From Mayamaea pseudoterrestris (lineage: Eukaryota): a stretch of 64,000 nt of DNA. The position numbers and the translations under genes are program-made. The DNA is taken from contig BROI01000026.1 in assembly GCA_027923505.1 (NCBI GenBank), positions 186,001-250,000 of the forward strand. Reading direction: 5' to 3'. The notes below the pieces were generated by a model. It saw nothing but the letters and a program-made list of their open reading frames with translations. It had not been told where the DNA came from and ran no database searches. Below, piece after piece: positions 10,643 through 56,636 of the stretch. Within the stretch, counting starts at the first letter, position 1; every line of letters begins with the position of its first letter.

Positions 10643-10788
10643 TGTGTAAGGTGTAGGGTCAAAAGTATATAAAGTATGAAAAAATGTTGGTTCGATTGCT
10701 TTTGCGAAAGAAATGAGGTGGTTGTCAGTTGTCAGTCACAATCATTGCATGTCGGCCGGAGAGCACGATATTATATTGTTTGCCGGTC

Positions 10789-33445: not shown

Positions 33446-35021
33446 GAAAATCAAAGTTATTGGTAGTACTCTTTGAGTGACAGTCCACGTACGTTGAAAA
33501 TTTTTTTGGGAGGGACCGGAACGGTCCCCCGGGGGACCGCAGGTCCCTCGAAGCGCGCGAGCGGGCGCCCGCTGACTCGGCAAATGGTGCGACGTGCTTG
33601 CTTGAACAGCCATCGACACAATATCGTGCCAAAGTGCCGAAATCAACCAGCAACAAGCAGCAACAGCATCGAACGTTCGACATCAAACTCAACAAGCAAA
33701 AAGCGAATTGAAAAAGGTGACAACAACCAACGCACCTCCATGGCAACACATAGAGTGACGCACCTCTAGCGCAGCAAGCAACATGAATGGCGCGCCTAAG
33801 CCATGACGCCCAGCAGTAGTCGAACGGCGAACGGCGAACGGCGACCATGCAGTCGAACCATGGAGAAGCAACAGACAAAGGCACTTTCAATTGACAGTAT
33901 TATAATTAACGCCAACAAGTAGAGTTCAAACTAAGTACTAAGTAATATCATGCCACCACACCAGCAGCAGCATCGAACGTTTGTCAGCACCAACACGCAC
34001 AAAACACAAGCTCCTCCAAGCAGCAGCCAGCCCCAACTTGTTGTTGCTATTGTCGCTTGTCCTTTATTTCCTTTAAACGCCACCTCAAATGCTGCTAATG
34101 ACAAGGAAAGAAGATTGATGTAAGTGATTTCACCATGGCTGCCGTCAAAGGAGCAGACATGGCTGCCGCAGCGCCGCAGCCATTCTGTTCCAGTCGCCAG
34201 AGCCATTCTCCATACGGTCATTTTCCTTGCCCGTTACATCCTGGCAAGTAAGTGATCCTTTGAATGGTGAATACAATGGTGTAAGCCAACTCACTCAAAC
34301 TGCTGATCTTCCTTTAGACTTCAGCCGCCTTGAAAGGATTGGTTGACACACCCTTTGAGGCCGCTCCAGCTCTAGTCGCTACTTTAATCAAGGCTGACCA
34401 GCCTCTGCACCACACAGTTGCATTCAAGCCATTGTCGGGGCCCAGCGGTACTGTATCTTGCCATTGCAGGCTGTACCACCAGCTGGGATAATCTAATGAT
34501 TGGTTTTGGTTTGGAGGTGCACGAAATGTTTTCCAAGGCGTGGCAGGCTGTCGAACTGCCGGTGGCAGATTTTGAACTCAGTCAATTGAACAGCCACTCA
34601 CCTAGAATGGTTGAAAAGAGTACAAATGTGCGCATCTAGAAATGAGCACGCTACCTTGCGCACATTGGCCAATGCAAAACGGCAAACTTGCAAAGCAAAC
34701 TGATTAATGTGAATTGCAAGGACCCTTTTAAGTCATTGAAGAATTCTACTGGGACCATAAATTATCGTTTAGCAGCCTACAGAGTTCTAGTGGACCTTCT
34801 AGTGGGCCTTTTAATGCTTTTTATGTTTAATAAGAGTAATAGTTAACGCAGTATTTACGTCCAAAGTGCTGTCGCTATATTCTTGTCGGCCGCGCGTCGT
34901 TCGTCGTTTTCGCTTCAGTCAATACCGCAGAGACAGTTTAATGTCGTACCGTTTCTAGGTCCCTCGTCGGTCCCTCGCATGTCTTCTATACTAGAAAATC
35001 AAAGTTATTGGCACTACTCTT
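33446..35021. mobile_element. Putative non-autonomous insertion bounded by 28-bp imperfect direct repeats
   Basis: gaaaatcaaagttattgg(tag/cac)tactctt at 33446 and 34994; subterminal inverted GAGGGACCG/CGGTCCCTC; interior has no intact ORF. Confidence 0.4.
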
Positions 35022-35266
35022 GCGCTATACAGTCTTTTGCCATGAGTCATGATGTCTGATCGAACCGATGCGACATCAGTTCATCGCCGTCGATTATCGC
35101 GCACATCGAACATGGCGTGAAAGGCTGACTCTTCCACCATAATTCTTATATCTTTGCTGGCATGCATCGCCAAGCTTGTTCGTCTATTAATCTTAGATCC
35201 ATTGACAAGTCCATACGTCTCGCTGCTCGAAAATACAAATCACCGCTTCTTTCTTTAAGTCCGCCG

Positions 35267-37468
35267 ATGCGATTCTACTCGGTTAAAGTTATTTCGCTTC
35301 TTTTCCCATTCGCGCGAGCCTTTACAATCTTTGCCAAGCCAATCCAATACTCGTCGTCAAGCAGCACCAATACCTGTCCAGCAACTACCATGTCAGCTTT
35401 AGCAGATCCAAGTACTGTCGCTACGAATCCATTGCTGGAGGACTGGTCCAGTCAGCCATTCCACATGCCGCCCTTTGACAAAATTCAACCCCATCACTTT
35501 CCAGATGCCTTAAAGACAGCCATGCAGGAGGAACTTGAGGAGCTCCAAGCGATTGCTCAGGAACATAATCCTAATTTTGAAAACATTGTTGCAACATTTG
35601 ATCGCTCCGGCCGCCAGTGCAGCCGCATTCAAGCCGTCTTTAACAATCTTTGCAGCAGCATGAATGTTCCAGAATTGCAGGAGATTGAGCGAGAAATGGC
35701 GCCGCTACAGAGTCGCCATTCGAGCGCCTGCTACCAAGTCCCAGGGCTATTCGACAAGATTCGTGTAGTCTACGAGCAGCGCGAGTCGAGCAATTTAACG
35801 TCGGAGCAAGTACGACTGGTGGAGCGCATTCACACGGACTTTACCAGAGCCGGAGCCGCGCTTTCGCAAAAAGACCAAGATGAACTCACGGAACTCAAGG
35901 CGGAATTGGCGACGCTCATGACCAATTTCACACAAAATGTCATGAAGGATGAAGAAACGTGGCAGTTGGAACTGACCGAAGCTGACATGGTTGGGTGTCC
36001 GGAAACGTTAAAGGATGCGGCCAAGGCGCAAGACCAGACTAACGTATACATTATCACCACGAGCCGCTCATTGGTTGAGCCGTTTCTGACATACTCGGAC
36101 CGCCGCGATTTGCGCCAACAGGTCATGGAGGCGTGGACGTCGCGTGGGCAAATGTCGGAAGACAGAGACAATCTAAAGCTGGCAACGAAGATACTTCGGC
36201 TTCGCAAACGCATTGCCAATATTCACGGCCACACGTCGTTTGCCGCATACCAGTGCGTCGATCGCATGGCACTGACGCCTGCCAATGTTTTGAAACTTTT
36301 GGAAAACGTTTGGAACAGGGCCAAGGAGTCGGCCAATCGCGAGCGACTGGCCATGGAAGACTTTGTCAAAGAGTCGGGCGAAGATTTGCAGGGCGGGATT
36401 CAGCCGTGGGACTGGCGTTACTATGCTGAGAAAGTGCGCAAGGCCAAATACGACTTGGATGAGTCACTTTTGAAGCCGTACTTGTCGTTGGAAAATTGCC
36501 GCAATGCACTGTTTCATGTTTCAAACAAGCTGTTTGGTCTTGAGTACAAGAAGCTTGACAACGTCCAAGTTTATCACCCCGATGTTGATGTTTACCAGGT
36601 GACGGATAAGTCTTTTGAAAGTGATAAGCTTGTTGCCATTTTCCTTCACGACAACTTTGCGCGTCCCTACAAGACGTCGGGTGCCTGGATGAGCGAATAT
36701 CGTTCTCAGACCAAGAACCTTGGTGCTGATTCGGATGTTATGCAAGGCATTCCAATCGTTTCAAACAACAACAATTTCGCCAAGTCCGACGTGACTCTTT
36801 TGAGCTACGACGATGCCACGACACTTTTTCATGAAATGGGGCACGGGCATCATGGCATGCTGAGTGACGCGACGTACGGTCGACTGGCGAGCACGAATGT
36901 AATGACGGACTTTGTCGAGTTGCCATCGCAGCTCATGGAGCATTGGCTCGACCAACGGCAGATTTTAAAGGAGTTTGCCAAGCATTACCAGACGGGTGAG
37001 CCGGTTCCGGATGACTTGCTGGACAAGCTTGACGCTGCCAAGGCGTTCCAGCAGGGATTCCAGACTGTCGAGTACACTGTTTGCGCGTTGATTGACATGG
37101 CGCTCCATGAGATGGAAGACTATCCAGATGATTTTGACTTGGAAGCCTTTGAAAAGGAGCAACTCGAGCGTCTCGGCATGCCGAAGGGAATTGTCATGCG
37201 TCACCGCCCCGCGCACTTCCAGCACTTATTTTCGACAAACAGTTACGCCGCTGGCTACTACGTATACCTTTGGGCTGACGTTTTGGTGGCCGATGCGTTT
37301 GCCGCCTTTGAGGAAACAGGCGACTGCTTCGACAAAGCCACGGCCGAACGCGCACGCAAGTACATTTACTCGGCCGGCAATACGCAGGCGCCGGACGAAT
37401 TGTTCCGGCTCTTTCGCGGCCGCGACCCTGACATAAACTATCTGCTGAAAGAGCGTCACCTGCTATAA
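35267..37468 (+). CDS. M3 metallopeptidase (Dcp/oligopeptidase A-like), probably plastid-targeted
   Basis: FHEMGH, DFVELPSQLME, HLF...YAAGYY and FRGR motifs; leader ...FARA|FT. Confidence 0.93.
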   Translation: MRFYSVKVISLLFPFARAFTIFAKPIQYSSSSSTNTCPATTMSALADPSTVATNPLLEDWSSQPFHMPPFDKIQPHHFPDALKTAMQEELEELQAIAQEHNPNFENIVATFDRSGRQCSRIQAVFNNLCSSMNVPELQEIEREMAPLQSRHSSACYQVPGLFDKIRVVYEQRESSNLTSEQVRLVERIHTDFTRAGAALSQKDQDELTELKAELATLMTNFTQNVMKDEETWQLELTEADMVGCPETLKDAAKAQDQTNVYIITTSRSLVEPFLTYSDRRDLRQQVMEAWTSRGQMSEDRDNLKLATKILRLRKRIANIHGHTSFAAYQCVDRMALTPANVLKLLENVWNRAKESANRERLAMEDFVKESGEDLQGGIQPWDWRYYAEKVRKAKYDLDESLLKPYLSLENCRNALFHVSNKLFGLEYKKLDNVQVYHPDVDVYQVTDKSFESDKLVAIFLHDNFARPYKTSGAWMSEYRSQTKNLGADSDVMQGIPIVSNNNNFAKSDVTLLSYDDATTLFHEMGHGHHGMLSDATYGRLASTNVMTDFVELPSQLMEHWLDQRQILKEFAKHYQTGEPVPDDLLDKLDAAKAFQQGFQTVEYTVCALIDMALHEMEDYPDDFDLEAFEKEQLERLGMPKGIVMRHRPAHFQHLFSTNSYAAGYYVYLWADVLVADAFAAFEETGDCFDKATAERARKYIYSAGNTQAPDELFRLFRGRDPDINYLLKERHLL

Positions 37469-38695: not shown

Positions 38696-38927
38696 GGTGA
38701 TGTGCTTGCAGCTTCCAAGCGAAATTGTGGTGGCACATCGAAGTCACGCGATTCGGACATTTCGCATGACTGAAAACTAGAGGTCGTCGGAAGTTGTGAG
38801 TCCCGTATGACAGAGTCGAACGCGCACGCGCACGTTGACGACGAAAGATCGGTCAATCGGCGGCCGACCAAGGCACGTACATAACAAGCGAGCGGCGACA
38901 ACAAAAAAACGAAAGCAGCATCCGATC

Positions 38928-39284
38928 ATGACACCAACCTTGTTTAAAAGTGTATTATTCTTTGCACTGCTTGCGAGCTGCGTTGATGCTTTAACGACAA
39001 GCCAGACGATCACCCGAACCTGCTCGTCCTCGCCCTCATCGACTCGACGCTGTCTCTTCTTTAATAATAACAAGGACAAGGACAATGGCAAGCCGACGAG
39101 CACCAGCGCGAATAAGAAGCAAGTAGGGTCAAAAAATGAGGCAAAGAAACCTTTCAAATTCCTGTACGGCAAACCAATGTACGACTGGGTCAATGGCAGG
39201 CCACTGACGCCCGAGGAAATGAAGGAAAAGAAGCCCTTTGATTGGAATGCGGCATCAAAGACAAGGAACAGTGGCAAGAAATAA
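38928..39284 (+). CDS. Small Lys-rich hypothetical protein with signal and transit-like leader
   Basis: MTPTLFKSVLFFALLASCVDAL followed by an S/T/R-rich stretch; YGKPMYDWVNG core. Confidence 0.7.
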   Translation: MTPTLFKSVLFFALLASCVDALTTSQTITRTCSSSPSSTRRCLFFNNNKDKDNGKPTSTSANKKQVGSKNEAKKPFKFLYGKPMYDWVNGRPLTPEEMKEKKPFDWNAASKTRNSGKK

Positions 39285-39779
39285 CAAGCAGGCCAATAAA
39301 TGATGCTTATGTTATCAATTGAAAGTTGGCAAGTGAGCCAGCTGATGGAGTATGAGGTACGCGGTATGTGTCAAAATTATATTGGACTTAACAGTTAGAC
39401 CTAGAGCCACAATGCACACACATGCTGTTTCTCAGAAAGCACATAACAATTCTGTCTAGGGGGCTCGGTTTATGAAGGTGGTTGTCTTTAAATAGGCTAC
39501 TCTTTGGATAAAAGTTTGTATTGAATGTAGATGTAGATGCACTAAAATCGACGAATATGTTCAATGATGCAAGTGTATGTAAGCAAACCTTTGCGCTAAG
39601 GTTATTAAAATAGTGGCAATCCTCTAACACGACATGCAAAGAAGTGTAATGAATCTGCAGTTGGCTGTAAACCAGGCCCAACATTAGGCTTCCCAGATAA
39701 TAAATCGTCACACTGACAAGTGCCACAGCAAGTAGCTGGGCATAGGCATAAACAGGTGGCAGAATGGGAACTTGCAACA

Positions 39780-40140
39780 AATAGGATTGGGGAGCACATT
39801 CCCAGCTCATGTGTAGCATCACTTGCCATTTGGGAGGGAAGGTCCACACGGTAACCTGCCCATGTGAGACTACAGTGTGTGCACATTCAAGGCCACACTG
39901 AATCCGCCCTGCTCCATAGTATGTTCTGGCTGCTAGGGATCACAGCATTGCCTGCTGAGCCCTCCAATAGTCTTGCTCAAATTATGTTTTGTCAATGCTT
40001 GGGGACACATATGAGGGTCATGTTGCATCAGCATCCATCACCATGTATGCCATGGTGAGGAGCAGTCCACACTGTAACCAGCTGGTGCACCCAGTAAGTG
40101 AGACTCCCAAAAGGCCTACCCCATAATACAACAATATGGA
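39780..40140. repeat. Degenerate hybrid of Sat176 and Sat348 forming the left border of the satellite block
   Basis: Sat176 words (cagctcatgtgtagca, gggagg..ggtccacac, ccaatagtcttgctc, gcttggggacacatatg) are interleaved with Sat348 words (cagcattgcctgctgagccctccaat, cagcatccatcaccatg). Confidence 0.8.
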
Positions 40141-43100
40141 CTTGAGGACACATATTGATTGGTGCAGCAATCATTCGCAGCTCTGTGCATTGGTGTGTGG
40201 GAAGTCCACACTATGCCCTGACTCTTCAACAATGGTTGAATGGCCAGCCCTGCTCCCTTTTTGGCTGCAGGAATCATCAGCATTGCCCGCTGAGCCCTCC
40301 AATTTCTTTCAAATCATGTTTGTTGTTAATGATAGTACTTAATTTGGTCAGTTGCACCTCGGCATCCATCACCATGTACGCAACGGTGAGACTGAGCAGA
40401 TTCAACAACTTGTTGGATCTGCTAGCGGTGCACCTCAAGTGGCAAGTGAGACTTCCAAAAAAGCTTGCAGACCCAATAAGACAACCAATAGGGACATGCA
40501 CATTGATTGGGTCTCATAGACTTGTCCATTTGGGCGTGGAAGCCATCACTATGCCCTGAGACTCCGCACATTCAACGAATGGTTGAATGCGCCAGCCCTG
40601 CTCCCTTTTTGGCTACAGGTATCATCAGCATTGCCCGCTGAGCCCTCCAATTTCTTTCAAATCATGTTTGTTGTCAATGATGGGCCATAAGTTGGTCAGC
40701 TGCACCTCAGCATCCATCACCATGTATGCCACGGTGAGACTGAGCAGATTCAACAACTTGTTGGATCTGCTAGTGGTGCACCTCAAGTGGCAAGTGAGAC
40801 TTCCAAAATGGGCTGCAAACCCCATAAGACAAACATTTTGGACTTGAACATTGATTGGCGTCTCATAGACTTGCCCATTTAAGCGTGGAAGCCATCACTA
40901 TGCCCTGAGACTCCGCACATTCAAACAATGGTTGAATGTACCAGCCCTGCTCCCTTTTTGGCTGCAGGAATCATCAGCATTGCCCACTGAGCCCTCCCAA
41001 TTCTTTTAAATAATGTTGTTCTCAATGATGGCCATAAGTGGGTCAGTTGCACCTCAGCATGTTGGATCTGCTAGCGGTGCACCTCAAGTGGCAAGTGAGA
41101 CTTCCAAAATGGCTTGCAGACCCCATAAGACAACCAGTAGGGACTTAAACATTGATTGGGACTCGTAGACTTGTCCGTTTGGGCGTGGAAGCCCTCACTA
41201 TGCCCTGAGACTCCGCACATTCAACCAATGGTTGAATGTGCCAGCCCTGCTCCCAATTTGGCTGCAGGGATCATCAGCATTGCCCACTGAGCTCTCCAAT
41301 TTCTTTCAAATCATGTTTGTTCTCAATGATGGGCCATAAGTTGGTCAGCTGCACCTCAGCATCCATTACTATGTACGCCACGGAGTGACTGAGCAGTATC
41401 AACCAGCTTGTTGGATCTGCTAGCGGTGCACCTCAAGTGGCAAGTGAGACTTCCAAAATGGCCTGCAGACCCCATAATACAACCAATATGGACTTGAACA
41501 ATGAATGGGTTTCATAGACTTGTCCATTTGGGTGTGGAAGCCATCACTATGCCCTGAGACTCCGCACATTCAACCAATGGTTGAATGTGCCAGCCCTGCT
41601 CCCTTTTTGGCTGCAGGGATCATCAGCATTGCCCGCTGAGCCCTCCAATTTCTTTCAAATCATGTTTGTTGTCAATTATAGGCCCTGAGTTGGTCAGTTG
41701 CACCTCAGCATCCATCACTATGTACGCCGCGGTGAGACTGAGCAGATTCAACAACTTGTTGGATCTGCTAGCGGTGCACCTCAAGTGGCAAGTGAGACTT
41801 CCAAAATGGCCTGCAGACCCCATAAGACAACCAATATGGACTTGAACATTGTTTGGGACTCATAGACTTGTCCATTTGGGTGTGGAAGCCATCACTATGC
41901 CCTGAGACTCCGCACATTCAACCAATGGTTGAATGTGCCAGCCCTGCTCCCTTTTTGGCTGCAGGGATCATCAGCATTGCCCGCTGAGCCCTCCAATTTC
42001 TTTCAAATCATGTTTGTTGTCAATGATGGGCCATAAGTTGGTCAGCTGCACCTCAGCATCCATCACCATGTACACCACAGTGAGAAACTTGTTGGATCTG
42101 CTAGCGGTGCACCTCAAGTGGCAAGTGAGACTTCCAAAATGGCCTGCAGACCCCATAAGACAACCAATATGGACTTGAACATTGTTTGGGACTTGTAGAC
42201 TTGTCTATTTGGGCGTGGAAGCCATCACTATGCCCTGAGACTCCGCACATTCAACCAATGGTTGAATGTGCCAGCCCTGCTCCCTTTTTGGCTGCATGGA
42301 TCATCAGCACTGCCCGCTGAACCCACCAATTTCTTTCAAATCATGTTGTTCTCAATGATGGCCATAAGCTGGTCAGTTGCACCTCAGCATCCATCACCAT
42401 GTACGCCACAGTGAGACTGAGCAGATCCAACAACTTGTTGGATCTGCTAGTGGTGCACCTCAAGTGGCAAGTGAGACTTCCAAAATGGCCTGCAGACCCC
42501 ATTATACAACCAATATGGACTTGAACATTGATTGGGACTCGTAGACTTGTCCATTTGGGCGTGGAAGCCATCACTATGCCCTGAGACTCCGCACATTCAA
42601 CCAATGGTTGAATGTGCCAGCCCTGCTCCCTTTTTGGCTGCAGGAATCATCAGCATTGCCTGCTGAGCCCTCCAATTTCTTTCAAATCATGTTTGTTGTC
42701 AATGATGGGCCTTAAGTTGGTCAGCTGCACCTCAGCATCCATCACCATGTATGCCACGGTGAGACTGAGCAGATTCAACAACTTGTTGGCTCTGCTATTG
42801 GTGCACCTCAAGTGGCAAGTGAGACTTCCAGATTGGCCTGCAGACCCCATAAGACAACCAATATGGACTTGAACAATGAATGGGACTCATAGACTTGTCC
42901 ATTTGGGCGTGGAAGCCATCACTATGCCCTGAGACTCCGCACATTCAACCAATGGTTGAATGTGCCAGCCCTGCTCCCTTTTTGGCTGCAGGGATCATCA
43001 GCATTGCCCGCTGAGCCCTCCAATTTCTTTCAAATCATGTTTGTTGTCAATGATGGGCCATAAGTTGGTCAGCTGCACCTCAGCATCCATCACCATGTAC

Positions 43101-46100
43101 ACCACAGTGAGAAAACTTGTTGGATCTGCTAGCGGTGCACCTCAAGTGGCAAGTGAGACTTCCAAAATGGCCTGCAGACCCCATAAGACAACCAATAGGG
43201 ACATGGACATTGATTGGGTCTCATAAACTTGTCCATTTGGGCGTGGAAGCCATCACTTTGCCCTGAGACTCCACACATTCAACGAATGGTTGAATGCGCC
43301 AGCCCTGCTCCCTTTTTGGCTACAGGTATCATCAGCATTGCCCGCTGAGCCCTCCAATTTCTTTCAAATCATGTTTGTTGTCAATGATGGGCCATAAGCT
43401 GGTCAGCTGCACCTCAGCATCCATCACCATGTATGCCACGGAGAGTCTGAGCAGATTCAACAACTTGCTGGATCTGCTAGCGGTGCACCTCAAGTGGCAG
43501 GTGAGACTTCCAAAAAGGCTTGCAGACCCCATAACACAAAAATTATGGACTTGAACATTGATTGGGACTCATAGACTTGTCTATTTAAGCGTGGAAGCCA
43601 TCACTATGCCCTGAGACTCCGCACATTCAACCAATGGTTGAATGTGCCAGCCCTGCTCCCTTTTTGGCTGCAGGAATCATCAGCATTGCCTGCTGAGCCC
43701 TCCAATATATTTCAAATCATGTTTGTTGTCAATGATAGGCCCTTAGTTGGTCAGTTGCACCTCAGCATCCATCACTATGTACGCCACGGGGAGACTGAGC
43801 AGATTCAACAACTTGTTGGATCTGCTAGCAGTGCACCTCAAGTGGCAAGTGAGACTTCCAAAATGGCCTGCAGACCCCATAAGACAACCAATATGGACTT
43901 GAACATTGTTTGGGACTCATAGACTTGTCCATTTTAGCGTGGAAGCCATCACTATGCCCTGAGACTCCGCACATTCAACCAATGGTTGATTGTGCCAGCT
44001 CTGCTCCCTTTTTGGCTGCAGGTATCATCAGCATTGCCCGCTGAGCTCTCCAATTTCTTTCAAATCATGTTTGTTGTCAATTGTAGGCCTTGAGTTGGTC
44101 AGTTGCACCTCAGCATTCATCACCATGTATGTCGTGGGGAGACTGAGCAGATTCAACAACTTGTTGGATCTGCTAGCAGTGCACCTCAAGTGGCAAGTGA
44201 GACTTCCAAAATGGCCTGCAGACCCCATAAGACAACCGGAAAGAAAACGTCTGATCGGCACTCAACACCAATGGTTGAATGTTCCTTCAGCCCTGTCCTT
44301 CCTTTGTTCAGGAATCATCAGCACTGCGGTGCCCGCCCCAACCCCCAATCAAACCAAAAATTTGTGTGTCACGACAGGCCCTAATTGGTCAGCTGCACCT
44401 CAGCATTCATCACCATGTATGTCGTGGGGAGACTGAGCAGATTCAACAACTTGTTGGATCTGCTAGCAGTGCACCTCAAGTGGCAAGTGAGACTTCCAAA
44501 ATGGCCTGCAGACCCCATAAGACAACCGTGGAAGCCATCACTATGCCCTGAGACTCCGCACATTCAACCAATGGTTGAATGTACCAGCCCTGCTCCCTTT
44601 CTGGCTGTAGAAATCATCAGCATTGCCCGCTGAGCCCTCCAATCTCTCTTGTTGGATCTGCTAGCAGTGCACCTCAAGTGGCAAGTGAGACTTCCAAAAT
44701 GGCCTGCAGACCCCATAAGACAACCAATAGGGACATGAACATTGATTGGGACTCATAGACTTGTCCATTTTGGCGTGGAAGCCATCATAATGCCCTGAGA
44801 CTCCGCACATTCAACCAATGGTTGAATGTGTCAGCTCTGCTCCCATTTTGGCTACAGGAATCATCAGCATTGCCCACTGAGCCCTCCAATTTCTTTCAAA
44901 TCAAATTTGTTGTCAATGATAGGCCCTAAGTTGGTCAGTTGCACCTCAGCATCTAAGACCATGTACACCACGGTGAGATTGAGCAGATTCAACAACTTGT
45001 TGGATCTGCTAGCGGTGCACCTCAAGTGGCAAGTGAGACTTCCAAAATGGCCTGCAGACCCCATAAATCAACCAATAGGGACATGAACATTGATTGGGTC
45101 TCATAGACTTGTCCATTTGGGCGTGGAAGCCGTCACTATGCCCTGAGACTCTGCACATTCAACGAATGGTTGAATGCGCCAGCCCTGCTCCCTTTTTGGC
45201 TACAGGGATCATCAGCATTGCCTGATGAGCCCTCCAATTTATTTCAAATCATGTATGTTGTCAATGATAGGCCATAAGTTGGTCAGTTGCACCTCAGCAT
45301 TCATCACCATGTACGCCACGGAGAGACTGAGCAGATTCAACAACTTGTTGGATCTGCTAGCGGTGCACCTCAAGTGGCAAGTGAGACTTCCAAAAAGGCT
45401 TGCAGACCCCATAAGACAACCATTATGGACTTGAACATTGATTGGGACGCATAGACTTGTCCATTTGGGCATGGAAGCCATCACTATGCCCTGAGACTCC
45501 GCACATTCAACCAATGGTTGAATGTGCCAGCCCTGCTCCCTTTTTGGCTGCAGGAATCATCAGCATTGCCCGCTGAGCCCTCCAATCTCTTTCATATCAT
45601 GTTGGTTGTCAATGATAGGCCCTAAGTTGGTCAGTTGCACCTCAGCATCCATCACTATGTACGCCGCGGTGAGACTGAGCAGATTCAACAACTTGTTGGA
45701 TCTGCTAGTGGTGCACCTCAAGTGGCAAGTGAGACTTCCAAAATGGCCTGCAGACCCCATAAGACAACCCATATGGGCTTGAACATTGATTGGCACGCAT
45801 ACACTTGTCCATTTGGGTGTCAAAGCCATCATTATGCTTTGAGACTCCGCACATTCAACCAATGGTTGAATGTGCCAGCCCTGCTCCCTTTTTGGCTGCA
45901 GGAATCATCAGCATTGCCCGCTGAGCCCTCCAATTTCTTTCAAATCATGTTTGTTGTCAATGATAGGCCCTAAGTTGGTCAGTTGCACCTCAGCATCCAT
46001 CACCATGTACGCCACGGTGAGACTGAGCAGATTCAACAACTTGTTAGAGCTGCTAGCGGTGCACCTCAAGTGGCAAGTGAGACTTCCAAAATGGCCTGCA

Positions 46101-49100
46101 GACCCCATAAGACAACCAAAATGGACTTGACCAATGAATGGGACTCATAGGCTTGTCCATTTGGGTGTGGAAGCCATCACTATGCCCTGAGACTCCGCAC
46201 ATTCAACCAATGGTTGAATGTGCCAGCCCTGCTCCCTTTTTGGCTGCAGGAATCATCAGCATTGCCCGCTGAGCCCTCCAATTTCTTTCAAATCATGTTT
46301 GTTGTCAATGATAGGCCCTAAGTTGGTCAGCTGCACCTCAGCATCCATCACCATGTATGCCACAGAGAGACTGAGCAGAATCAACAACTTGTTGGATCTG
46401 CTAGCAGTGCACCTCAAGTGGCAAGTGAGACTTCCAAAATGGCCTGCAGACCCCATAAGACAACCAAAATGGACTTGACCAATGAATGGGACTCATAGAC
46501 TTGTCCATTTGGGCATGGAAGCCATCACTATGCCCTGAAACTCCGCACATTCAACCAATGGTTGAATGCGCCAGCCCTGCTCCCTTTTTGGCTGCAGGAA
46601 TCATCAGCATTGCCCGCTGAGCCATCCAATTTCTTTCAATTTCATGTTGGTTGTCAATGATAGGCCCTAAGTTGGTCAGCTTCACCTCAGCATCCATCAC
46701 CATGTACACCACGGTGAGAAACTTGTTGGATCTGCTAGCGGTGCACCTCAAGTGGCAAGTGAGACTTCCAAAATGGCCTGCAGACCCCATAAGACAACCC
46801 TTATGGACTTGAACAATGAATGGGTTTCATAGACTTGTCCATTTGGGTGTGGAAGCCATCACTATGCCCTGAGACTCCGCACATTCAACCAATGGTTGAA
46901 TGTGCCAGCCCTGCTCCCTTTTTAGCTGCATGAATCATCAGCATTGCCTGCTGAGCCCTCCAATTTCTTTCAAATCATGTTGGTTGTCAATGATAGGCCC
47001 TAAGTTGGTCAGCTGCACCTCAGCATCCATCACCATGTCGCCCGGTAAGAGACTGAGCAGATCAACAACTTGTTGGATCTGCTCACTGCACCCCTCAAGT
47101 GGCAAGTGAGACTTCCAAAATGGCCTGCAGACCCCATAATACAACCAATATGGACATGAACATTGTTTGGGACTCATAGACTTTTCCCCATTTGGGCCGT
47201 GGGACCCATCACTGCCCTATGGACTCTACCCCGAACTCCGCACAACCAATGGTTGAATGCGCCAGCCGCTCCCTTTTTGGCTGCAGGAATCATCAGCATT
47301 GCCCGCTGAGCCGTCCAATTTCTTTCAAATCATGTTTGTTGTCAATGATGGGCCATAAGTTGGTCAGCTGCACTCAGCATCCATCACCATTCGCCCACCA
47401 CGGTGACGGCGATTCAGCAACTTGTTGGATCTGCTAGCGGTGCACCTCAGGCAAGTGAGACTTCCAAATGGCCTGCAGACCCCATAACCAACTGTCACAT
47501 CAACTTACAGTAAGACATCAATGCCCAACACTCTGCCATCAACACAATTGATGTCAAGACTTGTCCTAATTTGTGGATAGTCATCGTAAGCATCTGCCCC
47601 TGAGTCCCATGGTTGATTGGCACTCCTTTTGCTGCAGTGATCATCAGCATTCCCGCGCTGAGCCCTCCAATTTCTTTCTATCATGTTTGTTGTTGTCAAT
47701 GGGCCGTAGGTTGGTGTCAGCTGCACAGCATCCATCACCATTATTGCACAGCGGTGAGACTGAGCAGATTCAACAACTTGTTGGATCTGCTAGCAGTGCA
47801 CCTCCTTCGGGCAAGTGAGACTTCCCAAAATGGGCCTGCAGACCCCATAAGAAACAACCAACATGAGCTTGATTGCCTCATAACTTGTCCATTGGCAGAT
47901 CACTATGTTTGAGACTCACACATCAACCAACATGGTTGAATGTGCCAGCCCTGCCCTCTGCTCTCTTTTTGGCTGCAGGGATAATTTCAGCGTACTGCCC
48001 GTGAGCCCTCCCACTTTTTCTTTTCAAATCATGTTTGTTGTCATTGGTAGGGCCCTAAGTTGGTCATCCACCTCTGGGGCAGCACCACATGACACCAGTT
48101 CCAGGAAAAGTTGGAGCTGCTAGCGGTACACCTCAAGTGGCAAGTGAGACTTCAAAATGGCCTGCAGACCCCATAAGACAACCAATATTCGACCTGAGGA
48201 CTATACTCCATTATCCTATCCACTTCCCAATTTTGGATTGCACTACTCCCTCGGCACATTCAACCATTTGCGTGCCAGCCTTTGAGGAATCATCCATTGC
48301 CTGCTGGGCCCTAATTTCTTTTTCAAACCATGTAGTCATTAGTGGGCCCTAAGTTGGTCATTGTGCTCCCTCCAGCATCCATCACCATGTATACCACAGA
48401 AAGAATCAACTTGTTGGATCTGCTACAGTACCTCAAAGTGTAAGTGGAAGCTTAGACTATGGACAAATGGCCTGCAACTGACCCCATAAGACAACCAAAA
48501 TGGACTTGACCATTGTCTGGGCTCATAGACTTGTCCATTTGGGCATGAAGCCAATCACTATGCCCTGAGAACTCCACACATCCAACCAATGGTTGAATGC
48601 GCCAGTCCCTGCTCCCTTTTTGGCTGCAGGAATCATCAGCATTGCCCGCTGAGCCCTCCAATTTTTCTTTCAATCATGTTTTTGTCAATGATGGGCCCTA
48701 AGTTGGTCAGCTTCACCTCAGCATCCATCTGCAAACACCACGGTATGCACTTGTTGGATCTGCTGCGAGTGCACCTCAAGTGGTAAGTGAGACTTCCCAA
48801 AGGCCGCAGACCCCATAAGACAACCAACAGGACTTGAACATTGATTGGGTCTCATAGACTTGTCCATTTAAAGGTGGAAGCCATCACTATGCCGTGAGCC
48901 TCCGCACATCTAACTAATGGTTGAATGTGCCAGCCCTCTGCCGTTTTGGCTTGCAGGAATCATCAGCATTGCCCCGCTGAGCCCTCCAATTCTTTCAAAT
49001 CATGTTTGTTGTCAATGATGGGCCCTAAGTTGGTCAGCTGCATCTCAGCATCCATCACCATATACGCCACAGAAGATCCTGGATCTGCACCAGTTTCCAC

Positions 49101-52100
49101 ACCCAAGGGCAGTGAGACTTAAATTTAATGGCTCAGACCCCATAAGACAACCAATATGGACTTGAACATTGTTTGGGACTATAGACTTGTCCATTTGGGT
49201 GTGGAAGCCATCACTATGCCCTGAGACTCTGCACATCCAACCAATGGTTGAATGTGCCAGCCCTGCTCCCTTTTTGGCTGCAGGAATCATCAGCATTGCC
49301 TGCTGAGCCCTCCAATTTCTTTCAAATCATGTTTGTTGTCAATGATGGGCCCTGAGTTGGTAAGTTGCACCTCAGCATCCATCACCATGTATGCCACAGA
49401 GAAACTGAGCAGATTCAACAACTTGTTGGATCTGCTAGCGGTGCACCTCAAGTGGCAAGTGAGACTTCCAAATGGCCTGCAGACCCCATAATACAACCAA
49501 TATGGATGAACAAATTGATTGGTTTTCATAGACTTGTCCATTTTGGCGTGGAAGCCATCACCATGCCCTGATACTCCGCACATTCAACCAATGGTTGAAT
49601 GTGCCAGCCCTGCTCCCTTTTGGCTGCAGGAATCATCAGCATTGCCTGCTGAGCCCTCCAATTTCTTTCAAATCATGTTTGTTGTCAATGATGGGCCCTA
49701 AGTTGGTCAGCTGCACCTCAGCATCCATCACCATGTACACCACAGTAAGAAAACTTGTTGGATCTGCTAGCAGTGCACCTCAAGTGGCAAGTGAGACTTC
49801 CGAAATGGCCTGCAGACCCTATAATACAACCAAAATGGACTTGAACATTGTTTGGGATGCATAGACTTGTCTATTTTGGCGTGGAAGCCATCACTATGCC
49901 CTGAGACTCCGCACATCCAACCAATGGTTGAATGTGCCAGCCCTGCTCCCCATTTGGCTGCAGGGATCATCAGCATTGCCTGCTGAGCCCTCCAATTTCT
50001 TTCAAATCATGTTGTTCTCAATGATGGCCATAAGTTGGTCAGCTGCACCTCAGCATCCGTCACCATGTATGCTACGGTGAGACTGAGCAGATTCAACAAC
50101 TTGTTGGATCTGCTAGCGGTGCACCTAAAGTGGCAAGTGATTCTTCCAAATTGGCCTGCAGACCCCATAAGACAACCAATATGGACTTGAACATTGATTG
50201 TGACTCGTAGACTTGTCTATTTGGGTGTGGAAGCCATCACTATGCCCTGATACTCCGCACATTCAATCAATGGTTGAATGTGCCAGCCCTGCTCCCTTTT
50301 TGGCTGCATGGATCATCAGCATTGCCTGCTGAGCCCTCCAATTTCTTTCAAATCATGTTGTTCTCAATGATGGCCATAAGTGGGTCAGTTGCACCTCAGC
50401 ATCCATCACCATGTACGCCACAGTGAGACTGAGCAGATCCAACAACTTGTTGGATCTGCTAGTGGTGCACCTCAAGTGGCAAGTGAGACTTCCAAAATGG
50501 CTTGCAGACCCCATACGACAACCCATATGGACTTGAACATTGATTGGGACTCATAGACTTGTCCATTTGGGCAGGGAAGCCATCACTATGCCCTGAGACT
50601 CCACACATTCAACCAATGGTTGAATGTGCCAGCCCTGCTACCTTTTTGGCTGCAAAGATCATCAGCATTGCCCGCTGAGTGGTCCAATTTCTTTTAATTC
50701 ATGTTGTTTTCAATGATGGGCCATAAGTTGGTCAGCTGCACCTCAGCATCCATCACCATGTATGCCACGGTGAGACTGAGCAGACTCAACAACTAGTTGG
50801 ATCTGCTAGCGGTGCACCTCAAGTGGCAAAAATGGCCTGCAGACCCCATAATACAACCAATATGGACTTCAACAATGAATGGGACTTGTAGACTTGTCCA
50901 TTTGGGCGTGGAAGCCATCACTATGCGCTGAGACTCCGCACATTCAACCAATGGTTGAATGTGCCAGCCCTGCTCCCTTTTTGGCTGCATGGGTCATTAG
51001 CATTGCCCGCTGAGCCATCCAATATCTTACCAATCATGTTGTTCTCAATGATGGCCATAAGTTGGTCAGTTGCACCTCAGCATCCATCACCATGTACGCC
51101 ACAATGAGACTGAGCAGATTCAACAACTTGTTGGATCTGCTAGCGGTGCACCTCAAGTGGCAAGTGAGACTTCCAAAATGGCCTGCAGACCCCATAAGAC
51201 AACCAATATGGACATGAACATTGTTTGGGACTCATAGACTTGTCCATTTTGGCGTGGAAGCCATCACTATGCCCTGAGACGCTGCACATTCAATCAATGG
51301 TTGAATGTGCCAGCCCTGCTCCCTTTTTGGCTGCATGGATCATCAGCATTGCCCGCTGAGCCCTCCAATTTCTTTCAAATCATGTTTGTTGTCAATGATG
51401 GGCCATAAGTTGGCCAGTTGCACCTCAGCATCCATCACCATGTACGCCACAGTGAGACTGGGCAGATCCAACAACTTGTTGGATCTGCTAGCAGTGCACC
51501 TCAAGTGGCAAGTGAGACTTCCAAAATGGCCTGCAGACCCCATAAGAACAACCAATATGGACTTGAACATTGTTTGGGACTCATAGACTTGTCCATTTGG
51601 GCATGGAAGCCATCACTATGCCCTGAGACTCCGCACATTCAACCAATGGTTGAATGTGCCAGCCCTGCTCCCTTTTTGGCTGCAGGAATCATCAGCATTG
51701 CCCGCTGAGCCCTCCAATTTCTTTCAAATCATGTTGTTGTCAATGATGGCCATAAGTTGGTCAGCTGCACCTCAGCATCCATCACCATGTACACCACGGT
51801 GAGACTGAGCAGATTCAACAACTTGTTGAATCTGCTAGCGGTGCACCTCAAGTGGCAAGTGAGACTTTCAAAACGGCAAGCAGACCCCATAATACACTCA
51901 ATATGGACTTGAACATTGAAACGGACTCGTAGACTTGTCCATTTGGGCATGGAAGCCATCACTATGCCCTGAGACTCCGCACATTCAACCAATAGTTGCA
52001 TGTATAAGCCCTGCTCCCTCTTAGGCTGCAGGGATCATCAGCATTGCCCGCTGAGCCCTCCAATTTCTTTCAAATCATGTTGTTCTCAATGATGGGCATA

Positions 52101-52483
52101 AGATGGTCAATTGCACCTCAGCATCCATCACCATGTATGCCATGGTGAGACTGAGCAGATTCAACAACTTGTTGGATCTGCTTGTGGTGCACCTCAAGTG
52201 GCAAGTGAGACTTCCAGATTGGCCTGCAGACCCCATACTACAACCAATATCGACTTGAATAATGAATGGGACTCGTAGACTTGTCCATTTGGGTGTGGAA
52301 GCCATCACTATGCCCTGAGACTCCGCACATTCAACCAATGGTTGAATGTGCCAGCCCTGCTCCCTTTTTGGCTGCAGGGATCATCAGCATTGCCCGCTGA
52401 GACCTTCAATTTCTGTTAATGATGGGCCATAAGTTGGTCAGTTGCACTTCAGCATCCATCACCATGTATGCCACGGTGAGACT
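40140..52483. repeat. Tandem satellite with 348-bp unit (Sat348, a dimer of ~174-bp subunits), about 35 copies
   Basis: Equivalent positions at 45174, 45522, 45870 and 46218 give a 348-bp period; two homologous palindromes per unit. Confidence 0.97.
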
Positions 52484-53510
52484 TTGGGAAGGCAAGGGCC
52501 ACTTTGTAACCAGCTCCATGGTGCTACAGTGTGTGGCTTTCAAAGACTACCCCCAATTGTCTTGCTCCATGAATTTAGTTTTGGCTATGCTTGGGGTCAC
52601 GTATGTGGTGAGATTGGTGCGCTGCAATCTTTGCAGCTCATGTGTAGCATTGGTTATTTAGGAGGGCAAAGGTCCACTCTGTAACCAGCTCAATGGTGCT
52701 ACAGTGTGTGGCCTTCAAAGACTACCCCCAATAGTCTTGCTCCATGAATCATGTCCTGGCTATGCTTGGGAACATGTATGCGGTGAGATTGGTCCATTAC
52801 AATCATTTGCAGCTCATGTTAAACATTAATTGTTTGGGAGGGCAAATGCCAACACTGTAACCAACTCCGTGGTGCTACAGTGTGTAGCCTTTAAAGACTA
52901 CCTGCAATAGTCTTGCTCCATGAATTATGTTCTGGCTATGCTTGGGGACACATATGCGGTGAGATTGGTGCATCACAATCATTTGCAGCTCATGTGTAGC
53001 ATTGGTTGTTTGGGAGGGCAAAGGTCCACACTGTAACCAGCTCCATGGTGCTACAGTGTGTGGCCTTCAAAGACTACCCCTAATTGTCTTGCTCCATGAA
53101 TTCAGTTTTGGCTATGCTTGGAGGCACATATGTGCGGAGATTGGTGCATTGCAATCATTTGCAGTTCATGTGTAGCATTGGTTGTTTGGGAGGGCAAAGG
53201 TCCACACTGTAACCAGCTCCATGGTGCTACAGTGTGTGGCCTTCAAAGACTACCCCCAATAGTCTTGCTCCAAGAATTATGTTCTGGCTATGCTTGGGGA
53301 CACATATGCGGTGAGATTGGTCCATCACAATCATTCGCAGCTCATGTGTAGTATCAGTTGTTTGGGAGGGCAAAGGTCCACACAGTAATCATCTCCATGG
53401 TGCTACAGTGTGGCCATCAAAGACTATCCCCCATAGTCTTGCTCCATGAATTCAGTTATGGCTATGTTTGGGGTAATGCATGCAGTGAGATTGGTGCACA
53501 ACAATTCTTT
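52484..53510. repeat. Tandem satellite with 176-bp monomer (Sat176), about 6 copies
   Basis: ggagggcaaa at 52661, 52837, 53013, 53189 and 53365. Internal inverted repeats cacactgta...tacagtgtg and aagacta...tagtctt. Confidence 0.95.
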
Positions 53511-53870
53511 TTTTCAACGTGTGCTACAAGTAAAGTTGACTTGCTGGTGTCTATGCGGACTGCAATGTGATTGGTGATAATGTGTCACCAGTGTCAGCCA
53601 GCAGCTGCAATGCCTTTCAAATGCCCATACCTTGAGCCATGTGTATGCCTAATTCAAGTCTGAATGATGCCAACATCTTTGTTTAAGATGCGCTACAAGA
53701 AAAATTGACTGGCTGGTCCCGTGGTTGACTGCAATGTGATTGGTGACAACTTGTCACCAATCTCAGCCAGCAGATGCCGTAATTTTCAAAAGCCCATACC
53801 TTGAGCCAAGCATATTCCCAAATCAAGCCAGAATGGTGCTAACATCCTTAGTTAGGCTGCGCTACAAGAT
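53510..53870. repeat. About 2 copies of Sat169 (same family and orientation as 6360-8830)
   Basis: ctgcaatgtgattggtgacaacttgtcacca, gcctttcaaatgcccatacc and aaatcaagccagaatggtgctaacatcctta are shared with the 6.4-8.8 kb array. Confidence 0.92.
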
Positions 53871-53876
53871 GGTACT

Positions 53877-53978
53877 GCTGACAACACCGCATCCTGTCTG
53901 CTCTGCGAAACTAAGCAGCGCCTGGCCCGCTTAGTACTAGGCTGGAGTCCATGTTGGAATCCCAGGTGTTCTTGTTTT
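53877..53978 (+). pseudogene. 5'-truncated 5S rRNA copy 1
   Basis: gctgacaacaccgcatcctgtctgctctgcgaaactaagcagcgcctgg...gttggaatcccaggtgttcttgtttt aligns to the gene at 10525-10642; the first ~16 nt are absent. Confidence 0.9.
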
Positions 53979-54614
53979 AATGTTTGTATTTCTCATACCG
54001 GCAGCCGGTCTGTTGAATGCTCCTTATCATAAGTGGCATTCATGGATCAATTTCGGCCATTGTAGCGGTTGAAGGGCAGCTCTCCGTCGTTAATTTTGAT
54101 GCCACCAGCGACTATCGTGATTTGCTACCAATGCCTCCTCAACACAGTGACGGGCCAAGTTGCGCCGAAGAAGGTATTTGGGAGTTTGCCAGGAACCATG
54201 AGATTTCTACAAGCTACCAAAGCGCTGGAATAATTGATGTGGCAATAAGGAGGTTGGTTAATTAGGTGCTTGTTTTTGATGTGCTACAAATATGGCAATC
54301 GTGCCCGCTCGCAACGACGCACGTTGACCTTTATTACTCGAAACGCTAATTGGACATGCCCGCAGTGCAAAGTTATGTAACAAGCTTCACGTTCTGCACT
54401 CGAGCTGCATCTTCTTTTTTAAGCTTAACTGCGTCCTGCGGCGAATGCGAGGCGAATTGAAACGAAAAATCTGTAGTCACTAACAACATATGATCCGTAG
54501 TTGGTACATTCCGCACAATCTGCAACCAAATAATTACCTTGAGCCAAGCATATTCCCAAATCAAGCCAGAATGGTGCTAACATCCTTAGTTAGGCTGCGC
54601 TACAAGATGGTACT

Positions 54615-54716
54615 GCTGACAACACCGCATCCCGTCTGCTCTGCGAAATTAAGCAGCGCCTGGCCCGCTTATTTCTAGGCAGGGGACCATGTTGGAATCC
54701 CAGGTGAACTTGTTTT
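54615..54716 (+). pseudogene. 5'-truncated 5S rRNA copy 2
   Basis: Same alignment as copy 1 with partly different substitutions; ends in TTTT. Confidence 0.9.
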
Positions 54717-55290
54717 ATTGTTTATATTTCTCATACCGGCAGCCGGTCTGTTGAATGCTCCTTATCATAAGCGGCATTCATTCTCCGTCGTTAATTTTGG
54801 TGCCGCCAGCGACGATCGTGATTTGCTACCAATGCCTCCTCAACCCAGTGACGTGCCAAGTTGCGCCGAAGAAAGTGTTTGGAAGTTTGCCAGGAACCAT
54901 GAGATTTCTACAAGCTACCAAAGCGCTGAAATAAATGATGTGGCAATAAGGAGGGCTATTGGTTAATCAGCTGCTTGTTTTTGATGTGCTACAAATATCG
55001 CAATTGTGCCCGCTCGCCACGACGCACGTTGACCTTATTACTCGAAACGTTAATTGAACATGCCCGCATTACCAAAGCTATGTAAAAAGCTTCACGTTCT
55101 GCACTCGAGCTGCATCTTCAAGCTTAACTGCGTCCTGCGGCGAATGCGAGGCGAATTGAAACGAAAAATCTGTAGTCACTGACAACATATGACGTAGTTG
55201 GTACATTGCGCACAATCTGCAACCAAATAATTCTTGCCAAATTTAATCAAACGCAAGCATACCACACCTCACCCCTCCACGTGCTCGTTA

Positions 55291-56250
55291 TCAAAACTCA
55301 ATGTTCAAGTAGTCAAACAAAGTCAGGACAAACTCTGTCGGCGCGTCCAAGTAAACTGGATGTTTGCCATGCAGCTCCTTGACGGTTGCTCCAGCCTCTT
55401 CTTCGAGCCGCTTCATGTTTCGCTTGCCAGTCGCATCTAAATCTCCGTATATTGCCAGAATGGGCCACTGTATCTCCTTGATCGCTTGCATAGCATCCCC
55501 ACTCACACTCGCAACGGCGTTACTAGCCACTGGAATCCAGCTCTCGATGTATTGCTGCAAGTCTGTTCGTCTCTTCGAATCAGATATCCATTCCGTCACG
55601 GCACCGCCGGATGCCGAAGGTGTCACGAGCGCCGTCACTGGGAGCGCTTGCACCAGATTTGCTTCGCGCAACGCCTCCAGCACCATTTGCAGGTCAGCGG
55701 CAGTAGCCCTCACACTCAAATCTAGCGCGGTTACTTGCAAGGACGATGAAACGCTGCAAAGCAGTTTTAGTACGCCGCATCGCATCCAGTCTTCCTTGGA
55801 AAAGGCAGAGCCATGGAGCAAGAGAATCGATTGGACGGCGGAGGACGTCGACGCGGCACAGTAATAGTACGGGATCTTATCCTGCATAGAAGTATGAGTT
55901 TTTAAAACTCCTTGGACAATCTTGTGAGTCAAAGATCCAGATGAAGAGTCTTGAATCTTGTCAATGAGCGACGAATAACGCGACGCTGCTGCTGGATGTG
56001 TCTCTCTCATTGCCACGAGCAAAAATAAGATTAGTAAAACTGCCACAGGAAAGATGACACAGGAAGAATGGCGATTCGTGTGGGAATGTTGCAGTGCCAT
56101 CTGAGTCGAAGCACGCGACCGATAGCGATCGAGCAAAGGCTTGGTCATGGTCGACCTTTGTCGCTTCATTTTTTCGATCTGAGCAAAAATATGCTGTCGG
56201 ATCGGTTCTGCTTCGGCGAGGGCATAAGTGGCTTTAGCTTTTGCTTCCAT
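55291..56250 (-). CDS. ABHD14-like alpha/beta hydrolase with a TM segment
   Basis: LLLHGSAFSKEDW, ALDL, VTPSASG, IYGDLD and GKHPVYLDAP motifs. Confidence 0.85.
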   Translation of the reverse strand: MEAKAKATYALAEAEPIRQHIFAQIEKMKRQRSTMTKPLLDRYRSRASTQMALQHSHTNRHSSCVIFPVAVLLILFLLVAMRETHPAAASRYSSLIDKIQDSSSGSLTHKIVQGVLKTHTSMQDKIPYYYCAASTSSAVQSILLLHGSAFSKEDWMRCGVLKLLCSVSSSLQVTALDLSVRATAADLQMVLEALREANLVQALPVTALVTPSASGGAVTEWISDSKRRTDLQQYIESWIPVASNAVASVSGDAMQAIKEIQWPILAIYGDLDATGKRNMKRLEEEAGATVKELHGKHPVYLDAPTEFVLTLFDYLNIEF

Positions 56251-56636
56251 GCCAATATGACGCGCGCCAATTAAAAATATACCGTGTACTACTTAGCCTG
56301 TGGTGGTCACCGTGCTCACTACGCGCTTCTACTATCGCCACTCGGAACTCGAGTAGTATGAATACCGTACGTTTTCGTCGGCAAAGAACCGCAATTACAA
56401 GAACCTTGCTTGCACGAATATGATACAGTACGTACATACCGGCAGTAAGCTAAAAGCTGCATTAAAATAAATGGAGCAATCGTTTATCTTTATATAACGC
56501 ATACTGTATGTACACTGATCTATGGTATGGTGCCGATAGCCGGTGGTTCGACAGTTCTTCTAGGCCGTCCGCAGAGTTGCGCGAACTGTGTATTGTGTAT
56601 TTGCATACCGGTAGAGCACTACACGTATCTGCCAAT

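Follow-up and report, generated by a model that had tools for sequence, protein, structure and literature searches.

We analysed a 14-kb block of tandem repeats in the diatom Mayamaea pseudoterrestris, which lies in a 64,000-nucleotide stretch of contig BROI01000026.1 (assembly GCA_027923505.1, positions 186,001 to 250,000 of the forward strand; hereafter the window, in whose numbering all coordinates are given). The block is probably non-coding satellite DNA of a diatom chromosome that is, or long was, cytosine-methylated and silenced, and we favour its description as a heterochromatic, methylated block of satellites that grew by layered amplification. It consists of ordered arrays of three satellite families, here designated Sat348, Sat176 and Sat169, the first two of which are related to each other; it lacks coding potential, carries a CpG footprint, is enriched in dyads and is matched by many contigs of public sequencing runs. 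The CpG footprint and the genome-wide abundance are new points beyond an earlier description of the block, made from the letters and a list of their open reading frames (ORFs) and referred to below as the sequence-only reading, which had proposed a candidate satellite-type centromere or heterochromatin domain.

Anatomy of the block and relationships of its families

Repeats were detected using Tandem Repeats Finder and by searches with profiles built from monomers (Table 1). Positions 39797-53870 were found to be occupied by tandem repeats that pass from intermediate monomers through Sat348 and Sat176 to Sat169, all on the + strand, and are followed by a 5S-like element. Tandem Repeats Finder reported a period of 348 at 40225-44237 and 44648-47487 and a period of 346 at 48465-52483 (84-91% matches, scores 1359-5283), followed by a period of 176 at 52483-53505 (5.8 copies, 86% matches) and a period of 169 at 53523-53869 (2.1 copies, 79% matches). 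The Sat348 profile gave 40 + strand matches that run unbroken from 39821 to 52486, the Sat176 profile gave six matches spanning 52485-53509, and the only bases of the block outside every family are a run of about 6 T that separates Sat176 from Sat169. The profile map bore out the order of the families, their single orientation and the absence of spacer DNA given in the sequence-only reading, and Tandem Repeats Finder agreed with its monomer periods of 169, ~174 and 176 bp. The switch from Sat348 to Sat176, which had been placed at gagact near 52482, where palindrome B would begin, was read directly after 'ggtgagact' at 52482/52483; it is out of register and coincides exactly with the expected start of the left arm of palindrome B. 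The further statement that Sat176 grades into Sat169 at 53490-53530 did not hold, as the junction at 53509-53516 has a few bases of microsimilarity and no gradient. The GC (guanine plus cytosine) content of the block is average, at 47-49%.

Table 1. Satellite arrays, 5S sequences and associated features of the window.
Feature	Positions	Strand	Description
Sat169 array A	6353..8691	+	~14 monomers (Tandem Repeats Finder, profiles); outside the block described in the sequence-only reading
Canonical 5S ribosomal RNA (rRNA) gene	10525..10643	-	Rfam 101.1 bits; 1.8 kb from Sat169 array A
Left flank	39250..39796		CpG-depleted already, no recognisable repeat unit; Sat176 profile starts at 39797
Intermediate ('hybrid') monomers	39797..40410	+	Sat176-like tail, H1 39831-40025, H2 40026-40192, H3 40193-40355
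Sat348 array	40411..52486	+	~35 units (~37 over whole block), dimers of two diverged ~174-bp subunits
Rearranged stretch in Sat348	44162..44650	+	Truncated, locally duplicated unit pieces
Degenerate island of Sat348 units	47071..49423	+	From identity comparison between units
Sat176 array	52485..53509	+	5.8 monomers, out-of-register join to Sat348
Sat169 array B	53516..53870	+	2 monomers (53533-53870), perfect 12-bp-arm palindrome at 53738-53762
Tandem ~738-bp unit x2	53797..55232	+	Last 74 Sat169 bases + 5S-like element + ~547-base spacer
5S-like element 1	53862..53978	+	Rfam 47.6 bits; overlaps last Sat169 monomer
5S-like element 2	54600..54716	+	Rfam 42.3 bits

Well-kept Sat348 units are 88-98% identical among themselves, and the units of the block as a whole are only about 90% alike. 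The mean identity of Sat348 units is 0.88 at lag 1 and 0.85 at lag 11, and because it drops so little with lag, no strong order exists beyond the level of the dimer. The first unit, which starts at 40084, shares 80-87% identity with well-kept units, and the most diverged units (starts 47423, 47779 and 48110; 62-81% identity to the rest) lie in mid-array, the middle of the array thus being its most diverged part and not a core of highly homogenised units. Within the rearranged stretch, profile positions 1-82, 162-348, 1-76 and 125-245 occur in succession, and the junction text is the same at 44162 and 44452. The left edge of palindrome B at which Sat348 gives way to Sat176 is also the start of a ~15-base deletion before the units at 42090, 43118, 46724 and 49756, and this edge shared by junction and deletions suggests that palindrome B may be a favoured breakpoint.

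The two halves of Sat348 are similar to each other (z 6.0 and 5.6; 0 of 300 shuffles as good), and Sat348 is therefore a dimeric higher-order unit whose subunits, A and B, measure ~174 bp each. Where the block begins on the left, the stretch 39797-40410 is matched by the Sat176 profile (E 1.4e-11, 9.4e-11 and 4.7e-10) and also by the Sat348 profile (E 3.8e-28 and 2.4e-77). Positions 39961-40017 align to Sat176 positions 67-126 (E 9.4e-11) within the Sat348 match of E 3.8e-28, and features of the two families are interleaved in the edge monomers at a scale of less than 20 bases. Monomer H1 scored z 11.2 against Sat176 and z 19.8 against Sat348 subunit A, and H2 scored z 12.4 against Sat176 and z 18.5 against subunit B, with reverse-complement controls for these comparisons giving z -1.7 to 0.4. 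Because the edge monomers match both strongly, Sat176 and Sat348 appear to be one family, of which H1 and H2 would be surviving intermediates.

The position of Sat169 is different. It reached just z 2.5 against Sat176 (7 of 500 dinucleotide shuffles as good) and z -0.6 and -1.4 against Sat348 and the hybrid monomers, respectively, and the profile search gave no cross-match involving Sat169. The 9-mer ACAACTTGT was confirmed at the centres of both palindrome B and the Sat169 palindrome; by our own estimate, it is not improbable for units of such size to have such a 9-mer in common by chance. The block therefore seems to hold two satellite families that are unrelated, or at most very distantly related. 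The 'one satellite superfamily' of the sequence-only reading is accordingly retained for Sat176 and Sat348, which are joined by intermediates at z 11-20, and not for Sat169, for which no secure similarity was found.

In the layered amplification that we propose, family 1 would have started as an array of ~176-bp monomers, inside which the dimeric variant Sat348 (subunits A and B) arose. Unequal exchange would then have amplified Sat348 in mid-array, so that older intermediates remained on the left margin and Sat176 on the right. Such an expansion of the dimer variant within an older monomeric array is suggested because the block has a Sat176-like or intermediate start and a Sat176 end, and the order of the amplification events is likewise a reading of the present arrangement. 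Family 2, Sat169, would represent locally the satellite that is most abundant in the genome, and would have come to abut family 1. It would have become fused to a 5'-truncated 5S pseudogene, and the fusion unit would have been duplicated later.

CpG footprint, abundance and coding capacity

The ratio of observed to expected CpG was 0.19 in the hybrid monomers, 0.24 in Sat348, 0.14 in Sat176, and 0.33 and 0.26 in Sat169 arrays B and A, respectively; it was 1.0-1.16 in the flanking genes, 0.95 in the left intergenic stretch and 0.98 in the adjoining 5S unit. TpG and CpA were raised to 1.4-2.0 in the repeats. When the DNA was divided into 500-bp windows, all 65 inside the repeats had a ratio of 0.44 or less, while the 189 outside averaged 1.04. 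The drop starts ~550 bases to the left of the first recognisable monomer, with ratios of 0.44 at 39250 and 0.28 at 39500, compared with 1.0-1.4 farther left. At the six CpGs of the Sat348 consensus, comparison of 35 units located 41 of the 152 C>T changes and 42 of the 123 G>A changes (counted as cells, which are not independent events), a per-site rate of change ~5-6 times that of other C and G positions. Loss of CpG accompanied by hypermutable residual CpGs is the classic footprint of 5-methylcytosine deamination, and cytosine methylation tied to repeat silencing has been described in diatoms. Since both the depletion and the hypermutable residual CpGs are present, the repeats would be methylated now, or have been for long, with sharp borders, and methylation or heterochromatin would be the cause of the footprint. 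The 'heterochromatin domain' of the sequence-only reading thus gains indirect support from a sharp CpG depletion limited to the repeats and from the hypermutability of the CpGs that remain.

Two further stretches of the window are low in CpG. Positions 20500-21600 form a second CpG-poor stretch (0.16-0.32) with 124-bp and 135-bp tandem repeats, a strong C-over-G skew and overlapping Ser/Pro-rich ORFs, one of which matches the PT repeat weakly without reaching the Pfam cut-off; this stretch may be an exon of a low-complexity secreted protein or a further methylated repeat. At 34000-34750, two 500-bp windows are moderately CpG-low (0.47) amid CpG-normal DNA.

To assess abundance, the contigs of four public runs (X1, X2, X4 and X5) were compared with positions 51000-56500 at a likeness of at least 85%. 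Matches were found for 11,741 of the 555,133 contigs of X1 (2.1%) and for 3,758 of the 182,933 contigs of X2 (2.1%). Summed word depths in X1, which are sums over contigs and not copy numbers, were 3.3e4 to 2.9e5 for Sat348 bins, 3.7e3 to 4.7e4 for Sat176 bins, and 6.8e5 and 9.4e5 for Sat169 bins, with 88-276 for unique gene flank and 173-382 for the spacer of the 5S unit; X2 showed the same pattern. All three families are high-copy and variant-rich genome-wide, and Sat169 is the most abundant. The summed depth reached 5.9e6 at position 53760, inside the Sat169 palindrome, and the commonest loose ends flanking the palindrome core on both sides were diverged Sat169-like sequences. Subfamilies of Sat169 thus appear to share the palindrome core more widely than any other part. 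As a separate observation, one contig in each of the low-coverage runs X4 and X5 passes at 53372 from Sat176-like sequence into unlike sequence that is the same in both runs. This suggests that a Sat176 array has a further border elsewhere or that the border differs in those samples.

No ORF of at least 200 aa was present between 38695 and 55291, and the longest ORF wholly within the arrays has 148 aa. The seven ORFs tested from the block and its immediate flanks contained 0 Pfam families, and an Rfam search of 52400-55300 at E<=1 returned the two 5S-like copies only and no match to the repeats. A repeat-protein gene was considered and rejected: 348 is divisible by 3, yet no frame stays open through the units. 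The block thus has the attributes of satellite DNA, namely a fixed unit repeated head to tail, no coding or known RNA function, and many copies, if not an exact number of them.

Several points weigh against the account given so far. Compared directly, the consensus sequences of Sat176 and Sat348 are not significantly similar under either scoring scheme (z 1.3 and 0.5); the link between them is made by the edge monomers, and these might in principle have arisen by recombination on a fine scale instead of being ancestors. The CpG poverty could be partly inherited from CpG-poor founder monomers, an origin that is disfavoured because three families are affected and the residual CpGs are hypermutable. 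Genes ~1.1 kb to the left and ~1.4 kb to the right of the repeats keep normal CpG, and any silencing must therefore be tightly confined. As regards abundance, X1 and X2 may be the window's own source sample, and in X4 and X5 matches were limited to 18 of 51,723 and 11 of 51,321 contigs, respectively, with patchy cover from which no conclusion is drawn.

Palindromes and alternative explanations

The Sat348 unit contains palindrome A, with 13-bp arms, and palindrome B, and palindromes giving dyad symmetry are present in all three families. The inverted repeat in every family and the ACAACTTGT centre common to palindrome B and the Sat169 palindrome had both been pointed out in the sequence-only reading, correctly. 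Perfect hairpins with a stem of at least 9 and a loop of at most 20 number 39 in the 16.4 kb of satellites versus 3 in the other 47.6 kb (~40-fold). The Sat348 unit is predicted to fold into two perfect hairpins (energy z -5.97; 0 of 100 shuffles as good), Sat176 into a hairpin with a 9-bp stem and a 16-nt loop, and Sat169 into one with an 11-12-bp stem. Whole-monomer fold energies of Sat176 (z -0.68) and Sat169 (z 0.26) are unremarkable, and in these monomers the local hairpins alone stand out.

Among 31 gap-free copies of palindrome A, there were 32 one-sided breaks and 0 changes that keep the pairing. Palindrome B, in 25 gap-free copies, showed 25 one-sided breaks and 5 copies in which its usual T.G mismatch was made complementary, and its left arm has been lost in at least four units. 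The Sat169 palindrome, in 14 gap-free copies, showed 6 one-sided breaks, one compensatory CG>TA double change, which is common to two adjacent monomers, and one T.G mismatch mended, in monomer m53703. The palindrome columns have a conservation of 0.93-0.95, compared with a mean of 0.895 over the array. Strong selection on the palindromes within the array is not supported, since one-sided breaks far exceed compensated changes. The palindromes may form cruciforms or bind proteins. When public collections were searched, the 20-base core of palindrome A was found at 4 metagenome loci, as palindrome-only matches with no satellite, which we attribute to chance, and the 23-base Sat169 palindrome had 0 matches in public genome contigs and 0 in viral contigs.

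These properties bear on the proposal that the block, or the Sat169 and Sat348 families in general, is the satellite-type centromere of this chromosome, which we consider unlikely, together with its corollary that CENH3 nucleosomes would be phased on the ~170-bp units and the palindromes would act as non-B DNA specifying the site. Nucleosome-sized monomers (169, ~174 and 176 bp), strongly enriched dyads, a layered structure with a higher-order dimer in mid-array and older monomers at the edges, and the great abundance of the families are all in keeping with a centromere, as are the excess of depth at the Sat169 palindrome core (5.9e6 at 53760 vs 6.8e5-9.4e5 for the Sat169 bins) and the one compensatory CG>TA change in Sat169 and five palindrome B copies with T.G made complementary. 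Dyad-rich satellites occur at many centromeres, as a survey describes (PMC5889037), and no low-GC stretch of the Phaeodactylum type competes for the role in the window, where none of 639 100-bp windows has a GC content of 32% or less. Against this, Sat169 occurs at three places in 64 kb and the families are genome-wide and high-copy; the units are only ~90% alike, with the middle the most degenerate, whereas an actively homogenised core would differ; the palindromes decay mostly by one-sided changes (32 in A, 25 in B and 6 in Sat169), and at least four units are without the left arm of palindrome B.

The average GC content of the block also sets it apart from the short, low-GC, repeat-free centromeres of diatoms (10.1101/096016, 10.1101/2021.11.10.468027). 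In these two reports, the centromeres of Phaeodactylum tricornutum are low-GC regions that 'lack repeats' (10.1101/096016), those predicted in Fistulifera solaris are 1.4-2 kb long with 36-42% GC and without highly repeated elements (10.1101/2021.11.10.468027), and the stretches overall measure 0.5-3 kb with GC below about 33% or at 36-42%. The block resembles them in its diatom host, its compactness and its tight flanking by genes, and is unlike them in being 14 kb of tandem repeats at 47-49% GC; a repeat-free stretch of at least 500 bp at or below ~32-33% GC was not found in the window. It is similarly doubtful that this diatom has centromeres made of abundant satellites of nucleosome length whose palindromic core is conserved, and that the window lies in or beside one; on that reading the palindrome, which in the read data is what Sat169 subfamilies share most widely, would be the functional element, acting via a cruciform or a protein-binding site. 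If true, the satellite-centromere reading would set this diatom apart from Phaeodactylum and provide the first satellite-type centromere in diatoms.

The arrays might instead be cargo or internal repeats of a mobile element, Helitron-like or of another non-autonomous kind, which would explain both the scattered short arrays and the adjacency of unrelated families. At least three separate Sat169 sites in 64 kb, the abrupt, out-of-register junctions between families and the X4 and X5 loose ends at 53372, which join Sat176-like to other, unlike sequence, would be in line with such an element. We rate it as very improbable all the same: no terminal inverted or direct repeats were found between the flanks 38696-39830 and 53860-55300 (best E 0.7), the block and its immediate flanks contain no transposase, helicase or reverse-transcriptase ORFs (array ORFs are of at most 148 aa, and 0 Pfam families were found in 7 ORFs), no element termini or transposon domains were seen around the array within the 64-kb window, and the graded series of intermediate monomers is what growth in place would produce. 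The sequence-only reading had itself named many scattered blocks inside a transposon as an outcome that would count against it, and of these two parts the scattering was seen, for Sat169 at three places, and a transposon hallmark was not. Least credible of all is an assembly artefact, in which satellite reads were misjoined into a gene-rich contig or the array was given the wrong length. Satellites are a classic source of mis-joins, and many contigs skip or go back by whole units, so that the true array length is uncertain. The Sat169/5S-like junction is nonetheless spanned by a 406-base X1 contig without differences (53822-54227) and by a 213-base X2 contig (53821-54033), both possibly from the source sample; moreover, the CpG depletion extends ~550 bases into the unique left flank, and the graded intermediate monomers stand exactly at the left edge.

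Sat169 and 5S sequences, gene setting and significance

In the profile search, Sat169 was found at three places in the 64 kb, and Sat348 and Sat176 at one. Neither Sat169 array is more than 2 kb away from a 5S gene or pseudogene. Both 5S-like copies are preceded by the last 74 bases of a Sat169 monomer (at 54535-54608 in the second copy), the first ~17 bases of the 5S-like elements are Sat169 sequence, and the two ~738-bp copies are 87-88% alike. BLAST aligned bases 18-119 of the unit to 10626-10524 of the canonical gene (88% over 103 bases), and because the 5S-like copies align only from base 18, they are 5'-replaced copies fused to a Sat169 monomer; this ~738-bp Sat169/5S fusion unit is, judging by its two copies, duplicated in tandem. 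The 5S that the sequence-only reading had placed after Sat169 thus exists as a 5S match, but as a divergent, 5'-replaced copy, the canonical gene lying far to the left. On visual inspection, the regions of helix I and helix IV in the 5S-like elements still look able to pair through their changed bases, and these elements may be a variant 5S gene instead of a dead pseudogene. An origin of Sat169 as a 5S derivative was rejected (z 0.1 and 1.2 against canonical and variant 5S; no Rfam match to the monomers). Array A contains, at 6575-7572, a recent 499-bp duplication of a three-monomer block, one monomer of which has a 13-base insertion; its paired monomers have the same profile scores (185.1/185.1 and 210.0/210.0).

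The surroundings of the block in the window are gene-dense eukaryotic DNA with long, intron-poor ORFs, whose products, named by domain, include an M3 peptidase, a patatin-like lipase, a sugar transporter, an NAD kinase, and LRR and TPR proteins. The nearest named relatives of the M3 peptidase (ORF 35162-37468) are from diatoms, including Seminavis, Nitzschia, Cylindrotheca and others, at 59-62% identity, which marks the host as a diatom, none of its named relatives in this search being close. The gene at 22416-24269, at a distance of 15 kb from the block, encodes a SET-domain protein (Pfam E 2.2e-10), with no implied tie to the repeats. At 25995-26352, between two genes, is an intergenic 42-bp tandem repeat of 8.7 copies with higher periods of 118 and 160 bp.

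Animals and plants have satellite arrays with a higher-order structure, an example being primate alpha satellite, in which 171-bp monomers form dimeric and longer higher-order repeats and the array edges hold older monomers. The block is like alpha satellite in its ~170-bp, head-to-tail, non-coding monomers, its dimeric unit, its diverged edge monomers and its high abundance, and unlike it in being only 14 kb long, in lying between active-looking genes, in having units ~90% alike with a degenerate middle, and in its diatom host. Short dyads are common in centromeric satellites, according to a survey of dyads under 10 bp (Kasinathan and Henikoff 2018, PMC5889037). The block shares with such satellites short perfect dyads once or twice per monomer and predicted hairpins or cruciforms, and differs from the dyads in that survey by its longer 9-13-bp arms and the lack of visible protection from decay in the array. 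In another stramenopile, the oomycete Phytophthora parasitica, PpSat1 and PpSat2 are described as abundant satellites (PMC7290008), and the present families are likened to them by that description. The frog satellite PcP190 is reported to be linked to or derived from 5S rDNA (PMC11675491); the likeness lies in a satellite physically joined to 5S sequence, and the difference in that the tie of Sat169 to 5S is a junction fusion and not descent. The literature searched yielded no description of a diatom satellite family or of a repeat-based diatom centromere.

The feature, a satellite block that is well preserved locally, is of an ordinary kind in an under-studied lineage and involves no new mechanism. 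Satellite DNA is almost undescribed in diatoms, and in the window a diatom is seen to have very abundant satellites of ~170 bp that bear palindromes, carry a CpG-methylation footprint and have sharp borders beside normal genes. The sequences defined here allow one to ask whether centromere type varies among diatoms, and they provide a clean locus for studying how diatom methylation stays confined to repeats.

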